The notes beneath the pieces were generated by a model. That model searched no databases and was not told where the DNA came from. It worked only from the letters and a program-made list of their open reading frames with translations. Made by a program: the position numbers and the translations under genes. A DNA stretch of 14,577 nt. Origin: a virus. The DNA is taken from UHGV virus genome UHGV-1333726, one strand, 5' to 3'. Positions 4,770-14,577 of this stretch are shown here, one piece after another; the stretch's first letter is position 1, and every line of letters begins with the position of its first letter.

Positions 4770-5028
4770 CACTATGATCCTGTAAACAGTCGTTATAGCC
4801 TTCAATGTATCCGGTTAATCCAGTGTTACTAACTGACCAGTCAGCCGAACGGCGCTTGATGGCCTTGTCCATAGTCATTTCGTCGCCTGGTCCGCCTGGC
4901 TCAATGTATTTTCTTAAATCCCTTGCTATCCACGCCCTTAATTGTTGCGTATCACCGCACAACCGAGCGGATAATGTCAGGTCATTAACCAGCTTTGCAA
5001 ATAGATGTTCTTTTAATTTAGGCTTCAT
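4759..5028 (-). CDS. hypothetical protein (89 aa)
   Basis: ATG 5028 with GAGG upstream; ORF-track start 5061 is GTG. Confidence 0.5.
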   Translation of the reverse strand: MKPKLKEHLFAKLVNDLTLSARLCGDTQQLRAWIARDLRKYIEPGGPGDEMTMDKAIKRRSADWSVSNTGLTGYIEGYNDCLQDHSDGK

Positions 5029-5365
5029 TGTCGTCAACCTCGAAATACTGCTTAATAGCACGTTTGACGTTCATTTCACGCTGATAATTGTTATCGCTAT
5101 AGATTGCGGCTGCCGATACGTGATCGATAATTTGCTGTAATAAATCAGGATGAATTTTTATTTTTTCATCAAGGACAATGCGCGATGGCTTAGGTGCGGT
5201 AGCATTATCATTAACGATTTCTATCTCACCACGACCACCGCATCGCGGGCAAACAAACTTATCACCTTGATACAGCATGAATCCGCGACCTTTTTCAGTT
5301 TTTACGACCATGCCATCGTCGTCGCAGTTTTCGCAATACAGCCACCCAATATTAAGTATTTTCAT
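5018..5365 (-). CDS. zinc-ribbon protein (CxxC...CxxCGGRG), start uncertain
   Basis: ATG 5365 preferred (14-nt overlap with upstream gene; ATG 5428 would overlap by 77 nt); contains CENC...CPRCGGRGE pairs. Confidence 0.5.
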   Translation of the reverse strand: MKILNIGWLYCENCDDDGMVVKTEKGRGFMLYQGDKFVCPRCGGRGEIEIVNDNATAPKPSRIVLDEKIKIHPDLLQQIIDHVSAAAIYSDNNYQREMNVKRAIKQYFEVDDNEA

Positions 5366-5558
5366 TGTCTTTATTCCGTCCGTAAATATGTACTGGCTCA
5401 ACCGGTACGGCTGGCAATTCACCATCATTTAACGCGCTTGCCATGCCTAATATTAAACGCGCTTCAGCACCAGTGACTTTCTTACACCATGCACCGCCTG
5501 TTTTATCTTCGAACAAGATAACAGCAAACTGATCGTTTATTTCCAGCTTATCCATCAT
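5352..5558 (-). CDS. hypothetical protein (68 aa)
   Basis: ATG 5558 overlaps the TGA of Q (ATGA); second ATG at 5555. Confidence 0.5.
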   Translation of the reverse strand: MMDKLEINDQFAVILFEDKTGGAWCKKVTGAEARLILGMASALNDGELPAVPVEPVHIYGRNKDNENT

Positions 5559-6049
5559 TCACCCCGTGTTACTCGTTTGATTTCGTTGTCAGCCCGCGCC
5601 TCTTCTTTGAACAATTCAGCAATGGCGTCTTCATAGAAAGCGCGGTATTTCTTCCACCACGTTGATCGGCTTACCGGGAAAACAAGCTGATTAACCGCCC
5701 GCCGTACAAGATCTACAGGGAAACGCGAGTACCCGCGCCCGCCGCAATGCTGGCACGTTTTGAACACTGGCATTTCCGCCGCTTCACTGGCTGCTTTATC
5801 CGGTACTTCGCCACGGCCCTTGCATTGTTTACAATGATTGCGAACTGTCCCATGCCCCTTGCATTTTTTGCAAAGGTGTTTTTCTCCGTATTCGTCAAAC
5901 GTAAATTTATATCCGCCGCACTCCATACAAGTTTTTTCCGTCGCGGCACTCTGGCAATAATCCCGAAATGCGAAAACGGCAACAAGAATAATGAGATCAT
6001 TGCGTTTGGCCTCGTCCAGTTCCATAACGTATTCATAATCTTTTGCCAT
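5555..6049 (-). CDS. Q: late-gene antiterminator Q, zinc-finger (82/QuuD-like) type
   Basis: ATG 6049 with AAGGG upstream (ORF-track start 6073 is TTG); FAFRDYCQSAATEKTC, CQHCGGRGYSRFPVDLVRRAV and C-terminal ...STWWKKYRAFYEDAIAELFKEEARADNEI resemble recalled Q82/QuuD-family motifs; position downstream of ninG/rusA/ninH-like genes fits. Confidence 0.7.
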   Translation of the reverse strand: MAKDYEYVMELDEAKRNDLIILVAVFAFRDYCQSAATEKTCMECGGYKFTFDEYGEKHLCKKCKGHGTVRNHCKQCKGRGEVPDKAASEAAEMPVFKTCQHCGGRGYSRFPVDLVRRAVNQLVFPVSRSTWWKKYRAFYEDAIAELFKEEARADNEIKRVTRGE

Positions 6050-6083
6050 AGCCCTTAAACGCTCTGTAAGCAAAACTACGGCC

Positions 6084-6218: not shown

Positions 6219-6362
6219 CTATATGGTTAACTTTTGTTCCTCCTGAATCTTATATCCAACCTTAAACACTTGTGCTATAAACAGAAGAGATATACCAAAT
6301 ATGCCAAGGATAACATCTACACTTAAGATTGTTTCACACTCAAACCCGTCTATAGCCAACAT
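6219..6362 (-). CDS. possible small hydrophobic peptide (47 aa), next to N run
   Basis: ATG 6362 directly after the N run 6371-6380; MLAIDGFECETILSVDVILGIFGISLLFIAQVF... has one TM-like segment; the longer ORF-track version crosses the N run. Confidence 0.25.
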   Translation of the reverse strand: MLAIDGFECETILSVDVILGIFGISLLFIAQVFKVGYKIQEEQKLTI

Positions 6363-6432
6363 CTCTATCGNNNNNNNNNNGATAAACGCGGTGATTTTGG
6401 GAAGTGGAATTTGAGAATAGATTCCAGATTCA

Positions 6433-6615
6433 TTACTTGCCCCCGTAACGCGCAACAAGTCTTTTGCGATCAGATATTGCTTGCACCAACTTTCTTTCAA
6501 GCTCTTTAAGCGCAAGCAATTCTCGCATGTGGAAAGCCTGTATTTGTCGCACAGTCTCTAAATCATGCTCATCGCGCTGAATATCTATTTGCAGATCTTT
6601 AATTTCGTTTTTCAT
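6433..6615 (-). CDS. hypothetical protein (60 aa), predicted helical
   Basis: ATG 6615 overlaps TGA of upstream gene (ATGA); heptad-like charged sequence. Confidence 0.45.
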   Translation of the reverse strand: MKNEIKDLQIDIQRDEHDLETVRQIQAFHMRELLALKELERKLVQAISDRKRLVARYGGK

Positions 6616-6848
6616 TTCTCTACCACCTTAAACCGAGTTTTAAAATGACCCTGCAAAAAATACTCATTTTTTGATGGGAAATACTGGACTAATCGCCATG
6701 CGTCGGCGTCGTCGAAATCCGATACAAGATCGTCTTGTAGAATGAAAGCAAAGCACCCATGCTTTATAAAACCTGAATATTTTTTACCTTCAGTGAAAAA
6801 ATCGACGCTTGATTGAGTACATTTAACAACAATGTTTATTAACTCCAT
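6612..6848 (-). CDS. hypothetical protein (78 aa)
   Basis: ATG 6848 with GGGG upstream; 26-nt overlap with rusA end. Confidence 0.5.
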   Translation of the reverse strand: MELINIVVKCTQSSVDFFTEGKKYSGFIKHGCFAFILQDDLVSDFDDADAWRLVQYFPSKNEYFLQGHFKTRFKVVEK

Positions 6849-7251
6849 TGTCGCCCCACATATCAGTTAAGTATTCATTAATATCCGGCAACATGTCGTT
6901 GCGTTCTCGCACCTTGATAAATAAGAGTCCGCCTTTTACCTTCCGGCAACGAACAAACTTCATTGCGTCAACCTGGCTGTCATCGGCCCAAAAGCCGGAA
7001 TAGGTTATAGCGTCAAATAACGCTTTCCCTATATTATCTATATCGCGTCTCCTGTTGTCTGGCGGCGCAATATAAACCGTTATTGATAACCTGCATTTTA
7101 GATTTATATCAAGATTAAAACGCCTTATGACTTCCCTCACCCATTCTCTGTATTTTTTCCCCTCCTTGCTTATATAGTTAACCCCTCTGGCGTGGCGGTA
7201 ATACCTGTTACATGATGGCGGGTAAGGCAGGATAAAAGAATATTCATTCAT
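6823..7251 (-). CDS. rusA: Holliday-junction resolvase RusA
   Basis: ATG 7251 overlaps ninG TGA (ATGA); ILPYPPSCNRYYRH...PDNRRRDIDNIGKALFDAITYSGFWADDSQV matches the RusA family signature (PWPPSNNRYY...RRDLDN...FWLDD). Confidence 0.9.
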   Translation of the reverse strand: MNEYSFILPYPPSCNRYYRHARGVNYISKEGKKYREWVREVIRRFNLDINLKCRLSITVYIAPPDNRRRDIDNIGKALFDAITYSGFWADDSQVDAMKFVRCRKVKGGLLFIKVRERNDMLPDINEYLTDMWGDNGVNKHCC

Positions 7252-7853
7252 GCCGCCTTTCTCCTTAAGGCGTCTAATTTCGCCTGATAAACTTTAATGA
7301 TCTCCTTACATTCTTCGATCGTCCATTTGTGAGTTTCGTTATTATTTTCTAATGCCTCCACCCTTTCTAATCCTATTTTTTTTATTAAATTTATTCTGTA
7401 TAACTCAACATTGCCGTCTAATACCTGATTGCAATGTCGGCATTGTAGGTTTACGTTATCCTCGTTAAATCGAAGGTGTCCGGCTGCCGCTACTGTGCGC
7501 CAGTGTCCAGCATCAGCGCCGCATTGTTCGTAATAATAAGTCCCGCAAGATATACACGGCTGACCCGCGTCACGCTCGCGTATATAAGCGTTAAAAACGT
7601 TTTGTGCCTGTTTAATCCAGTAGCTACGCGGATTTAACTGTTTCCGTTTCCGGTTGCGTTCTTCCCGCTGGCTATCACGGCGTTTCTTCCGCTCCATAGC
7701 CTTCATAGCCTTTTCACGATCGCGGCATAGCTGATCAAACTTCAGTTCTTCCAGACATTCATCGCTGCACCACGTTTGATTGTGATATTTAGGCTCAAAA
7801 AAAACGCCGCAGCATTTGCAACGGCGTCTTATAGGTTTTTTAGGGTTCTGCAT
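7248..7853 (-). CDS. ninG: NinG/Rap recombination protein
   Basis: ATG 7853 (ORF-track start 7943 is an upstream extension); RRRCKCC...YHNQTWCS...PRSYWIKQAQNVFNAYIRERD...PCISCG...HKWTIEECK closely parallels lambda NinG. Confidence 0.85.
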   Translation of the reverse strand: MQNPKKPIRRRCKCCGVFFEPKYHNQTWCSDECLEELKFDQLCRDREKAMKAMERKKRRDSQREERNRKRKQLNPRSYWIKQAQNVFNAYIRERDAGQPCISCGTYYYEQCGADAGHWRTVAAAGHLRFNEDNVNLQCRHCNQVLDGNVELYRINLIKKIGLERVEALENNNETHKWTIEECKEIIKVYQAKLDALRRKAA

Positions 7854-7867
7854 AAAAACCACCCCGA

Positions 7868-8044
7868 TTATTTTTGATTCTCTGTTTCGTTCAGCCTTTC
7901 GGCGTGTCCGGCCCTTAGCCAATGTTCTAAGCATTCGTTGCACTCGTTACAGCCTCCTTTCTTCGTGCTGCATACATTGCACATTGCACGCATGACGCTT
8001 TCTCGTTCATAGTCGTCATGCCATTGGTAATTATCAAAAGTCAT
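7868..8044 (-). CDS. ninF: NinF-like small Cys-rich protein (58 aa)
   Basis: Manually found ORF ATG 8044 to TAA 7868; MTFDNYQWHDDYERESVMRAMCNVCSTKKGGCNECNEC...; position immediately upstream of ninG and Cys-rich character as in lambda NinF. Confidence 0.5.
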   Translation of the reverse strand: MTFDNYQWHDDYERESVMRAMCNVCSTKKGGCNECNECLEHWLRAGHAERLNETENQK

Positions 8045-8203: not shown

Positions 8204-8962
8204 TCAGTCCGGTAAAACGCGGTCATGGTTAGCCAGGAATACAGCACGGGCAAAGCCACGCGGTGTTAGTGAGCGGATCATCTTTGTTCGTTTCGTCCTG
8301 CCTCCGGTTTTCGCCCACCCAGGGTTATCACCAGAGTTAAGATCTACAGGTCTAAAAAGCGGCTGCCTGAATCCGTTGCCGCACCATATGCAAGTTTTCT
8401 TCGTGTACGCGTCGCGCGGTGGGTAAACATCAGGGAAAGCAGGATGCTTGTCATCTTCCGGCAGGTAGCCACCGTAAGCGCAAGGATTGAAGATAAAATC
8501 CGGTTTACGCCATAGCGTTGACAGCACACCAACAGGATTCTCCACCATCCACGGCACGTTATACATGTTAGCCAGAGATTCAACCAACATTGCGTTTCTT
8601 GCCGCCCTATTCTGAAAACAAGGATCTTTCCTGTATTTATCAACGAACCAGCGAGCGCCTGACACAGCGAGATCGTCGCATGGAGGAAAGCCCAGGATAA
8701 TGTCAGGCCCTGGATAAACAGACAATTCAGGGGAGAACATTCCCAGGAAATGGCTATCAATCCAGATGTTAACGTATTCAATATTTGGATGAATGATTTT
8801 AACGCCTTCATAATCTCCGTGATTTGCGCCGTCATAGTTGAAGCAATAGCACTTATATCCAGCTTCCGCCCAATCTTTAACGGCGTACCCGCTGCCGTCG
8901 TACAGCGACCACACCACCCAACTTCTAAGCCAATTATTTAACCAATGTTTAGCCCTGCTCAT
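8204..8962 (-). CDS. compact C5-methyltransferase-fold protein (putative DNA cytosine-5 methyltransferase-like enzyme)
   Basis: ATG 8962 overlaps TGA of upstream gene (ATGA); motif I-like LYDGSGY (res 21-27), GFPPCDDLAVSGAR (res 91-104, cf. M.HhaI GFPCQAFSISGK) and VENP (res 140-143, ENV-like) in canonical order and spacing; only 252 aa, no obvious QRR or target-recognition domain. Confidence 0.6.
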   Translation of the reverse strand: MSRAKHWLNNWLRSWVVWSLYDGSGYAVKDWAEAGYKCYCFNYDGANHGDYEGVKIIHPNIEYVNIWIDSHFLGMFSPELSVYPGPDIILGFPPCDDLAVSGARWFVDKYRKDPCFQNRAARNAMLVESLANMYNVPWMVENPVGVLSTLWRKPDFIFNPCAYGGYLPEDDKHPAFPDVYPPRDAYTKKTCIWCGNGFRQPLFRPVDLNSGDNPGWAKTGGRTKRTKMIRSLTPRGFARAVFLANHDRVLPD

Positions 8963-9462
8963 TTTCTACCCTCAAACGTGAAATAGCGGCGCATAATGAT
9001 GGTGATCACCGTTACCGCTGCCATTTTTGAGATGAATTGCATAGCTGATATTTCCGGCATAAATGCCATAAACGATAGCGTAGGAAAAATTAACGCATCG
9101 CCGATGGCGGACGCTATATTTGCAGGCCAGCGTTTCGAATCGAAATCACCAGGTAAAACCCGGTAAACGCCGCCAGAAATAAGCGCACCGGAAACAACCG
9201 CAACGAATGACGCGATCGCCACCATTCCTGCGTCGTAATTTATCAGCACCGTGATTGCGCCAGCGGCGGCGCATGTTGTAGCCGACCATTTCAGACCGCC
9301 GTCATATAACAGAAAGTCGCGGATCATCATATTGACACACACGGCGGCTACCGTGGTGATCGGAATTACCCACGGGCCGCAGTGGTTAACAATAAGGTTG
9401 ATGATCACAAAAACGGCGACATAAACGCAGGCTAATAACCTGTCAATCGTCACCCTTTCCAT
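8959..9462 (-). CDS. polytopic membrane protein, VUT/YhhQ-like (putative queuosine-precursor transporter family)
   Basis: ATG 9462 with GAAGGA upstream (ORF-track start 9537 would overlap upstream gene by 95 nt); about six hydrophobic segments; NIASAIGDALIF resembles the recalled YhhQ C-terminal motif; family assignment tentative. Confidence 0.45.
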   Translation of the reverse strand: MERVTIDRLLACVYVAVFVIINLIVNHCGPWVIPITTVAAVCVNMMIRDFLLYDGGLKWSATTCAAAGAITVLINYDAGMVAIASFVAVVSGALISGGVYRVLPGDFDSKRWPANIASAIGDALIFPTLSFMAFMPEISAMQFISKMAAVTVITIIMRRYFTFEGRK

Positions 9463-9934
9463 TTTTATGATCCTTCGGTGTATACAATAAAGCCTCTTTA
9501 TTAAACCGCCAGCCGTTACCAAGCTGGAAGCTACCATTCATTATTACTTCACCACTAGCGATTAGGTCGCCTGGTATTGAGGTTTTCTTACAGCGGCAAT
9601 TTAACGACATATCAAAATCACCCTGTTTTTTCTTTTGCTCTTCCTCCCGCTCCGCTAATATTTGCTCCGCTTTTAGCGCGTTGTAAGCAATAAGGTCTAT
9701 GAGAGTGTCGAGCGGATCGCTTCCATTGCTTAAAATGGCCTCTAATCGCGCCTCCTTGAGGCAAATCATTAGATCCCATACATCAAGCGGGGTTAAACTT
9801 GTCCCCTTCTTAGCGTTGTAAATAGTGGCTATTTTTGGCGCTGATTTTTCTTCTTTTCGATCGTATCCGTTTTGTTCTCCTCTTGCCTCGATAGTTTCAG
9901 CCGCAAGTCTCAGCAATTCAGCCGCTTTATTCAT
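9443..9934 (-). CDS. hypothetical protein (163 aa), helical N-terminal domain
   Basis: ATG 9934 with GAGGTG upstream, 2 nt after dam stop (ORF-track start 9952 overlaps dam); conserved-looking LTPLDVWDLMICLKEARL segment; no family assigned. Confidence 0.55.
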   Translation of the reverse strand: MNKAAELLRLAAETIEARGEQNGYDRKEEKSAPKIATIYNAKKGTSLTPLDVWDLMICLKEARLEAILSNGSDPLDTLIDLIAYNALKAEQILAEREEEQKKKQGDFDMSLNCRCKKTSIPGDLIASGEVIMNGSFQLGNGWRFNKEALLYTPKDHKNGKGDD

Positions 9935-10466
9935 TTTCTGCACCTCTTGCATATAGCTCTTTACGTGTTATCTGCGTGAAAATACATTCATGTCTGCATC
10001 GTGGATGCCAGATCAAGAACAAGCTCCCTTTATTGTTTCCACTTGCTGGTTTACCTGTTGCAGCATTGATAAACGCCAGCCGCCCGCGCGTGATTAATCG
10101 GCATTCGTTTGCAGTCTCCACGCCGTTCATAAACCAGCTAACAGAAATGTCAGCGGGCAACAACATCACGCAACCGATGTGATTCCGTTGATGTTCGAGC
10201 GCCGCTTTATCAATAAATGGACCCGGATTTGAGTATGGCGGATTCATCCATACATATTCGCCAGGCATTGCCACCGCTCCCCACGGATAAGTAAGCGTGT
10301 CCATTTCTTCGGTTATATATCGCGGGATTAATGCGTTTGCCTTGTTTGCCGCCACGTCAGCGACAAATTCAAACTCGCGGTCCATTCCTCTAAAAACTGG
10401 TTTAGGTGTCTGCCACAGGTCTTTAATTTCCTTCGGTGTGCTGCTGCCTCCAAAATCATTTTTCAT
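9927..10466 (-). CDS. dam: phage Dam-family DNA N6-adenine methyltransferase
   Basis: ATG 10466 with AAGGGGGG upstream; N-terminal DLWQTPKPVF...FEFVADVAA and catalytic VWMNPPYS (NPPY variant of DPPY) are signatures of the phage Dam family. Confidence 0.85.
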   Translation of the reverse strand: MKNDFGGSSTPKEIKDLWQTPKPVFRGMDREFEFVADVAANKANALIPRYITEEMDTLTYPWGAVAMPGEYVWMNPPYSNPGPFIDKAALEHQRNHIGCVMLLPADISVSWFMNGVETANECRLITRGRLAFINAATGKPASGNNKGSLFLIWHPRCRHECIFTQITRKELYARGAENE

Positions 10467-11114: not shown

Positions 11115-11156
11115 AGGTGCAGCCCCGANNNNNNNNNNTTCCAGTCTTTATAGTGT

Positions 11157-13652: not shown

Positions 13653-13949
13653 TTAATCGTTAATGACCTGGCCCATACGCCCGCGATATTTGCGCATACG
13701 TGGATCGACATATTCAGGCCAATGCATATCCGGTTTTCTTTGCAGTGGGTAAAAACTTGCCTGCCAGTTGTCGAACCATATTTGTTTTGCGTACAGGTCA
13801 CTAAATCTTTTTGCCATCCGTTCCGCTGCCGTTCCGCATAAAAAAAGCCCATGATCGATATGATCACGGGCTTCTTTGAGAACTTGCTCTTTTGTTCGCG
13901 GTGGCGGTGGCGTTTTTAAATAATCAACCATCGCTAACCACCTCGTCAT
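13653..13949 (-). CDS. hypothetical protein, start uncertain
   Basis: ATG 13949 with GAGGGAG upstream (alternatives 13976, 13931); contains a PPPP stretch. Confidence 0.5.
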   Translation of the reverse strand: MTRWLAMVDYLKTPPPPRTKEQVLKEARDHIDHGLFLCGTAAERMAKRFSDLYAKQIWFDNWQASFYPLQRKPDMHWPEYVDPRMRKYRGRMGQVIND

Positions 13950-14445
13950 GCGCGTTGGCTCCCTCACCATGCTCATTGTGCCACGCTCGATGGCAAATAG
14001 GACAAAGCCACATAACGTCTAACGGCTTATCATAATCGCAATGGTGAGCGTGCACGCGTTCGCTTCTTCCGCATACTTCGCAAGGTTGTTTGACCAGCTT
14101 GCCGTCACGGATGGCATTTCCTACCATTATTTCAGCGTGCCTTTTCTTTGGGTTACTTCCCTGCCATTTATCCCTGCTTCTTTTCATCGCTTCCTTGCCT
14201 TTTTCAGTTTGCTGATACTTTCTTTTCATCTCCTTTCTTTCTTCCGACTGGTCTCTTATTTTGTCGTATTCCTTATAGTGCTCTTTGTTTTCTTTGTAAT
14301 TATTTTTGACATCTCGTTTTGTACACTCCTTGCATTTATTTAAATAGCCATCAGCCATTTTTTTATGTTTATAGAAACAAGAAAGGGGCAATAACGCCCC
14401 GCATTTAAAACATTGTTTATAGTGCGTAAATTCTGTGTTTTCCAT
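13924..14445 (-). CDS. HNH endonuclease with N-terminal zinc ribbon
   Basis: ATG 14445; C-terminal VHAHHCDYDKPLDVMWLCPICHRAWH is a canonical HNH motif; N-terminal CFKCG...CKEC; the ORF-track extension to 14574 is the alternative frame of the ssb tail. Confidence 0.8.
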   Translation of the reverse strand: MENTEFTHYKQCFKCGALLPLSCFYKHKKMADGYLNKCKECTKRDVKNNYKENKEHYKEYDKIRDQSEERKEMKRKYQQTEKGKEAMKRSRDKWQGSNPKKRHAEIMVGNAIRDGKLVKQPCEVCGRSERVHAHHCDYDKPLDVMWLCPICHRAWHNEHGEGANAHDEVVSDG

Positions 14446-14577
14446 ACTGCAACCCCACGTAACCGAATGGAATCGAATCATCAAAATCCATTGGCGGCTC
14501 TTTATATCCACCGCTATGACTCTGCTGTTGCTGTCCTGCATCATTGCTGCCACCTTTGCCGCCAGTAAACTCAAAGT
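14417..14577 (-). CDS. ssb: single-stranded DNA-binding protein, C-terminal fragment (5' end beyond window) with atypical extension
   Basis: Frame entering from the window edge reads ...GGKGGSNDAGQQQQSHSGGYKEPPMDFDDSIPF (Gly/Gln-rich linker plus acidic tip like E. coli SSB ...PPMDFDDDIPF) but continues GYVGLQYGKHRIYAL before TAA at 14417. Confidence 0.5.
   Translation of the reverse strand, partial: FEFTGGKGGSNDAGQQQQSHSGGYKEPPMDFDDSIPFGYVGLQYGKHRIYAL

Follow-up and report, generated by a model that had tools for sequence, protein, structure and literature searches.

What use does a temperate coliphage have for a relative of the queuosine-precursor transporter YhhQ if it carries none of the genes for 7-deazaguanine modification of DNA? 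The question is raised by the UHGV virus genome UHGV-1333726, a stretch of 14,577 nucleotides (nt; referred to below, at its full length, as the window), in which a minus-strand open reading frame (ORF) at positions 8959-9462 encodes a small polytopic membrane protein. An earlier note, prepared from the DNA alone, recognized features of the YhhQ/VUT family in this protein and remarked that phage-encoded importers of this type are expected mainly where DNA carries 7-deazaguanines. Our analysis revealed that the paradox is real and even sharper than the note supposed, since in related phages the homologous gene abuts a gene for DpdA, the DNA 7-deazaguanine transglycosylase, whereas the clade of the window protein is devoid of it. 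On balance, we lean towards the view that the protein is a divergent VUT/YhhQ importer put to a DpdA-independent use, with the 7-deazaguanine queuosine precursors preQ0 or preQ1, or a purine-like analogue, as its likeliest cargo.

The window belongs to a temperate Escherichia coli phage of the mEp021/mEp immunity-I group and covers 14.6 kb of a genome of approximately 54 kb. Its DNA is 86-89% identical to that of mEp554, mEp010, MagusPhagus and mEp021, and similar prophages are present in 35 of 5,426 complete E. coli genomes. The mEp immunity-I group is reported to be prevalent in the human gut (PMC11893012); the transporter gene is not discussed in that paper.

The ORF (504 nt, 167 amino acids [aa], ATG at 9462) proved to be a real gene. 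A longer version starting with the ATG at 9537 lacks a ribosome-binding site (RBS) and would run 95 nt into the upstream gene; the shorter one was preferred because a GAAGGA RBS lies 8 nt ahead of the ATG at 9462. The close homologues are of comparable size (164-173 aa). Pairwise comparisons with mEp021, MagusPhagus and an E. coli prophage gave dN/dS ratios of 0.011-0.026 (dS 0.20-0.36, dN 0.003-0.009), and a ratio of 0.09 was obtained with a relative whose protein is 54% identical. Among isolates the protein is 96-99% identical, compared with 86-89% for the surrounding DNA, and 7 isolate phages carry the gene with an undisrupted reading frame. The gene is thus functional and under very strong purifying selection.

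The predicted protein is strongly hydrophobic (grand average of hydropathy 0.92) and, as the note had stated, contains about six hydrophobic segments (residues ~9-27, 30-50, 58-76, 80-102, 113-132 and 138-160); six transmembrane segments are also listed for the orthologue in the mEp021 record. By the positive-inside rule, its basic C-terminal tail would be cytoplasmic, as in YhhQ. The N-x-x-S-x-x-x-D motif singled out in the note is present as N115-I-A-S118-A-I-G-D122. Residues N115 and D122 never vary in two of our alignments (A1 and A3) and are conserved to 90% or more in a third (A4, 148 family representatives), while the R48-D49 pair is invariant in A1, A3 and in 122 DpdA-linked relatives. 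E. coli YhhQ can be aligned with the D-(S/T)-x-x-F part of the motif only, D122 corresponding to the Asp of its SDTLAFF stretch.

The family assignment required profile methods. The only PHROG matched by the protein is phrog_4899, a family with no assigned function (E=8e-47), and the labels given to it are "hypothetical" or "putative membrane protein" in GenBank, and "hypothetical protein" for the orthologues in the Prokaryotic Genome Annotation Pipeline (PGAP). A word-indexed search retrieved close relatives only, and a shallow-profile hhalign comparison was uninformative (E=0.1), so that deeper profiles were needed for the link with YhhQ. A tblastn search of 50,697 phage records identified 14 distant homologues (28-36% identity, E 1e-10 to 1e-22), several of which carry the annotation "VUT family protein". 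When seven isolate-phage homologues were tested, three, 32-33% identical to the window protein, exceeded the Vut_1 gathering score with 38-40 bits, while the window protein falls below it. A profile built from 115 short, Vut_1-positive phage proteins, with the window's subgroup excluded, matched residues 10-158 of the window protein with 65 bits (E=4e-16, calculated for an assumed database size of one million). In the opposite direction, a profile of the subgroup alone, searched against 1.84 billion representatives at E<=0.001, gave 257 matches; among the top 147, Vut_1 (PF02592) was recognized at E<=0.001 in 140. One of these top matches is fused to a QueF domain. Finally, hhalign comparisons of a wide family alignment connected it with E. 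coli YhhQ (probability 94%, E=1.2e-7, 141 columns, YhhQ residues 14-192) and with CAjan gp41, a "putative preQ0 transporter" (probability 96%, E=7e-9, 137 columns). Membership of the VUT/YhhQ family (PF02592, COG1738, TCDB 2.A.88), as proposed in the note, is therefore supported by profile searches in both directions, and the protein is a divergent member of this superfamily rather than a YhhQ orthologue.

Some other family members differ in architecture. About two dozen (P0273-P0378) are 278-340 aa long and combine an N-terminal VUT domain with a C-terminal part of ~140 aa, which matches no Pfam family in most of them and carries DUF5020 in two. One protein with an Mpo1-like domain was also found among the top 147 matches.

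The predicted structure points in the same direction. An AlphaFold2 model based on a 68-sequence alignment is all-helical (mean predicted local distance difference test score 88.7, predicted template modelling score 0.82) and shows a six-helix fold resembling that of the S-components of energy-coupling factor (ECF) transporters. The top Foldseek match in BFVD is named "Putative vitamin uptake transporter", with weak E-values, and at the sequence level the profile of the protein matched no solved structure. The S-components FolT, ThiT, RibU, BioY, PanT and CbiM share the modelled fold, their sequence identity being only 8-15%; unlike in ECF transporters, genes for the A/T module are absent from the phage.

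Homologues of YhhQ in phages have been reported before, uncorrelated with any phage group (Hutinet et al. 2019, PMC6884629). E. coli YhhQ, for which genetic evidence indicates a requirement in preQ0 uptake (PMC5372724), has the six-helix inner-membrane architecture and the Asp-(Ser/Thr)-x-x-Phe stretch at helix 5 in common with the phage protein. It is longer (221 versus 167 aa), whereas the shorter protein is phage-borne and encoded in a predicted early lytic operon. E. coli K-12 lacks an ECF energising module (PMC5372724), and both proteins are expected to work without one. Phages CAjan and EC151 carry yhhQ inside full preQ0 clusters (PMC7544227, PMC8310023). The product of the CAjan gene (gp41 of this Seuratvirus, 159 aa) is likewise phage-encoded and is a profile homologue of the window protein, but represents a different subfamily and, unlike the window gene, lies within a complete folE-queD-queC-queE-dpdA cluster. 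The window protein is thus a divergent and previously unannotated member of a known group, found in an unusual, DpdA-less context.

How unusual this context is became apparent from the closer relatives. All eight isolate phages outside the mEp021 group that carry a homologue (PEAT2, AB3P2, Opt-719, LHE71, Phc, RCIP0319, Flyfo Tbat1_6 and ECO111 5-P) have a DpdA gene abutting or overlapping it; DpdA was recognized by phrog_887 in seven (E 1e-62 to 1e-86) and by a custom DpdA profile in the eighth (E=3.5e-115). The metagenomic relatives P0251 and P0252 (contigs L018 and L021) share this arrangement, and P0317 (L022) does so weakly. Because DpdA abuts the homologue in these relatives, the short phage VUT gene and DpdA constitute a recurrent two-gene module. 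The module occurs in unrelated phages (Drexlerviridae, Peatvirus, Obolenskvirus and an unclassified bat-gut siphovirus), and no preQ0 synthesis genes were found in the examined flanks of the phages that carry it (L002, L003-L009, L018 and L021).

The DpdA-paired VUT proteins (e.g. PEAT2 gp18, Opt-719 gp66 and Tbat1_6 gp35) belong to the same length class as the window protein (154-173 aa) and are 28-36% identical to it over their full length. The polar residues that are invariant in the DpdA-linked relatives (N22, R48, D49, S85, N115, D122, Q142 and K146) are all kept in the window protein, together with the invariant G29 and P34 and the nearly invariant N75. In a neighbour-joining tree the window protein forms one clade with P0009 and P0248; its sister is P0253, near which no DpdA was found within 5 kb. 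The P0248 gene is followed by two paralogous-looking proteins of 136-140 and 144 aa (L015 6516-7363 and the equivalent parts of L016 and L017), and in L015 and L017 by an N6/N4 DNA methyltransferase after these.

These observations can be accommodated in the following scheme. The short, 167-aa protein, a six-helix VUT/YhhQ member with an ECF S-component fold, would reside in the inner membrane and most likely act as a solitary carrier like E. coli YhhQ. A pocket formed by N22, R48/D49, N75, S85, N115, D122, Q142 and K146 may accommodate a small heterocyclic base, which the protein would then import; preQ0/preQ1 or a close purine-like analogue is the best candidate, and import of preQ0 is plausible. 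The transporter would be expressed with early DNA-modification genes and translationally coupled to its neighbours, as the RBS, the ATGA overlap of its stop with the next start and the conserved four-gene block suggest. It would descend from a phage-specific clade normally paired with DpdA, and in the mEp021-like lineage, where DpdA is absent, a small C5-cytosine methyltransferase would occupy the adjacent slot. Selection would have kept the transporter for a DpdA-independent use, most plausibly a larger pool of the imported base, e.g. for queuosine-containing host tRNA (Q-tRNA). Boosting the precursor pool for host Q-tRNA has been proposed for phages with preQ0 genes that lack DpdA (PMC6884629). 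That the protein acts as a transporter, in which direction and on what substrate, and how the phage profits from it are what we infer here; the reality and constraint of the gene, its family and fold, the linkage to DpdA in relatives and the absence of DpdA from this clade have been shown.

Several observations weigh against an importer of queuosine precursors. Direct scans of the window protein gave no Pfam or NCBIfam match at E<=0.1, and the comparison with PF02592 (gathering score 27.2 bits) suggested in the note left it unmatched; pairwise BLAST was non-significant with both E. coli YhhQ (E=0.23) and CAjan gp41 (E=1.4). We read the missing match to curated models as a limit of their sensitivity and not as a biological discrepancy. 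The transporter adjoins a DUF6378 gene and a C5-methyltransferase-like gene rather than DpdA, and an association with 7-deazaguanine genes is seen only in more distant relatives. In six-frame searches, the DpdA profile (E=3.5e-115 with the positive control) gave no match (best E=0.5) to the window, the complete mEp021 genome (L001 and L010), positions 1-50000 of MagusPhagus or a related prophage; the same was true for the 54%-identical relative L013 and the 45%-identical P0248 (contigs L015-L017). The complete mEp021 genome and the leading 50 kb of MagusPhagus yielded no que genes either, the PGAP annotation of the related prophage names neither DpdA nor a que gene, and the other ORFs of the window contain no que-type domains, which bears out the observation of the note that que and dpdA genes are missing from the window. 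An Rfam scan of the window revealed no family, preQ1 riboswitches included.

The host provides a further difficulty. E. coli already carries yhhQ and also makes preQ0 de novo (PMC5372724), and therefore the gain from a second importer is not obvious. Moreover, deletion of yhhQ from CAjan left the dPreQ0 content of its DNA unchanged (PMC7544227), and the COG1738 family is heterogeneous in specificity (PMC5372724). Finally, several positions at which at least 95% of the DpdA-linked relatives have the same polar residue carry replacements in the DpdA-less clade (N36T, D44N, H52L/F, D96S/A, S114A, S119A and S123A), which would fit a changed substrate or coupling. Since the whole clade shows these replacements, the identity of the substrate is uncertain.

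The same replacements lend some weight to an alternative that we regard as tentative and distinctly less probable than import of a queuosine precursor, namely that the transporter was neofunctionalised after the loss of DpdA and took on a new substrate (another purine, a vitamin or a cofactor-related compound) in the service of the methyltransferase cluster or of an early lytic need. It would also account for the very strong purifying selection without DpdA, for the translational coupling to the C5-methyltransferase-like gene, a pairing conserved in L013, and for the position of the second DpdA-less relative, P0248, two genes from an N6/N4 DNA methyltransferase; furthermore, the S-component fold carries many different vitamins, and subfamilies of COG1738 differ in specificity (PMC5372724). 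However, the neighbouring genes indicate no candidate substrate, the C5-methyltransferase-like protein has a very large family (more than 7,500 matches) whose listed members bear no transporter annotation, its fold and PC/ENP motifs fit an ordinary S-adenosylmethionine-dependent enzyme that needs no import, and the core binding-site residues common to the DpdA-linked proteins are retained. A more specific version, in which the new substrate or role was gained by the DpdA-less clade (the window protein together with P0009 and P0248, P0253 being the nearest outgroup) and the transporter works as one unit with the products of the DUF6378 and C5-methyltransferase-like genes translated alongside it, seems to us rather doubtful.

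It appears improbable that the transporter still feeds 7-deazaguanine DNA modification, with a transglycosylase that lies outside the window, is too divergent for detection or is supplied by the host. In its favour, DpdA is the usual partner of the family elsewhere, the window represents only 14.6 kb of the genome of approximately 54 kb, and DpdA families diverge widely, with no Pfam match for any of seven DpdA proteins examined. Despite its strong positive control, however, the DpdA profile came back empty-handed from the genomes listed above; in the relatives DpdA is always adjacent to the transporter; and no transglycosylase is named in the PGAP prophage annotation or was recognized among ten large unannotated mEp021 proteins, which gave no queuine-tRNA-ribosyltransferase PHROG match.

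That the protein serves in the membrane in a role other than transport, as a holin, a superinfection-exclusion protein or a membrane-perturbing protein, is highly improbable; the first two were named in the note as examples of an outcome that would overturn the family assignment. The protein is indeed a small hydrophobic phage product, and one distant relative gave a sub-threshold Hol_Tox match (E=0.05), but no holin or exclusion family was matched in the Pfam, NCBIfam and PHROG scans, the remote matches are all to Vut_1, and fold and profiles alike indicate S-component/VUT transporters only. The lysis genes are located elsewhere (endolysin at 339-911 of the window; holin annotated separately in relatives; spanin likewise away from the transporter), and the gene is placed in an early DNA-metabolism block outside the lysis cassette. 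The idea of a decaying VUT-DpdA remnant with no current function, which the missing partner and the YhhQ of the host might suggest, is effectively refuted by the selection analysis, since a gene under such strong purifying selection (dN/dS 0.01-0.03) is not a relic; moreover, its frame is undisrupted in 7 isolate phages, its RBS and translational coupling are preserved, and 35 E. coli genomes carry the region that contains it.

The importer reading assigns a testable function to a protein that is conserved in the mEp immunity-I coliphages, is labelled "hypothetical protein" and was missed by Pfam, NCBIfam and PGAP. Two points seem to us moderately interesting: VUT and DpdA are tightly paired in the sister groups, and a strongly selected DpdA-less clade exists among DNA methyltransferases. 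The former helps to predict which phages with DpdA only could modify their DNA by precursor salvage, while the latter offers a clean case for the role of the importer in phages apart from DNA modification, a question left by Hutinet et al. 2019. Under the more specific version of neofunctionalisation described above, gut-prevalent temperate coliphages would acquire an external small molecule for their early DNA-modification or host-takeover programme; one possibility is that uptake of a queuine-family micronutrient reprogrammes host tRNA during lytic growth.

Table 1. Coordinates of the putative transporter gene, its signature codons and its neighbours in the window
Feature	Position	Strand	Basis
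Dam, N6-adenine DNA methyltransferase, first in conserved four-gene block	9927..10466	-	PF05869 E=3e-51; TIGR01712 E=3e-40
DUF6378 gene, 169 aa, upstream; last 20 nt overlap the transporter start	9443..9952	-	PF19905 E=2.4e-7
VUT/YhhQ-family membrane protein gene, 167 aa, mEp021_32 orthologue	8959..9462	-	ORF, phrog_4899 E=8e-47, Vut_1 profiles, fold, dN/dS
C5-cytosine-methyltransferase-like gene, 252 aa, downstream; ATG overlaps the transporter TGA (ATGA)	8204..8962	-	
GAAGGA resembling a Shine-Dalgarno sequence, 8 nt before the start codon at 9462	9471..9476	-	read from sequence
Codons of signature N115-x-x-S118-x-x-x-D122, start of helix 5	9097..9120	-	alignment conservation
Codons of invariant R48-D49 pair, end of helix 2	9316..9321	-	alignment conservation

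As shown in Table 1, the genes of the region all lie on the minus strand and are tightly packed, in the order Dam, DUF6378, transporter, 252-aa C5-methyltransferase-like protein, followed by NinF-like, NinG and RusA genes. The statement of the note that the transporter is situated between two methylases was almost correct: the C5-methyltransferase-like gene adjoins it, and Dam is one gene further upstream with DUF6378 intervening. The four-gene block is kept in L013, where the transporter is 54% and the methyltransferase-like protein 65% identical to those of the window. In every mEp021-type genome (e.g. mEp021, MagusPhagus and prophage L014), as well as in L013, a DUF6378 gene immediately precedes the transporter. 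PHROGs calls families related to DUF6378 "phosphofructokinase", which looks like an inherited misannotation, and the idea that DUF6378 is MazG-like found no support in a PDB sequence search, which gave no match, or in the literature.

In contrast to the DpdA-paired VUT genes, the window gene abuts the gene of the C5-methyltransferase-like protein. The latter has no Pfam match and matches no solved structure by sequence; it is confidently predicted to adopt the C5-methyltransferase fold, with invariant PC and ENP motifs. In its family of more than 7,500 matches, 3 of the 120 listed carry PF00145, none of the 120 has a transporter annotation, and several members are named "DNA cytosine methyltransferase" by NCBI. 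The length of 252 aa is unusually small for this class of enzymes, and family members typically have 227-260 aa. The DNA C5-carboxymethyltransferase 8yf3 was among the better structural matches. This protein was also considered as a disguised DpdA and rejected in view of its predicted fold and motifs; a DpdA hidden elsewhere in the mEp021-type genomes was sought as well, and none was found.

Several minor observations concern other parts of the window. Runs of ten N are present at 6371-6380 and 11129-11138, the first of them inside the ORF at 6219-6515, which results in X residues in its translation. A minus-strand ORF of 216 aa at 13924-14574, which reaches the window edge, matches endonuclease PHROGs (phrog_2340 and, more weakly, endonuclease VII and Lar-like restriction alleviation), and endonuclease VII is annotated in the corresponding region of mEp554. 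The minus-strand ORF at 5555-6073 encodes a Q-like antiterminator with CxxC zinc-finger repeats (phrog_127, E=1e-49), and the ORF downstream of it (5018-5428, minus strand) shows a weak DnaJ-type CxxCxGxG match. In the related prophage L014, the gene at 6645-8024 is named "anti-CBASS protein Acb1 family protein" by PGAP, while phage records give a portal protein at this position, and the Acb1-type name is probably a naming artefact.

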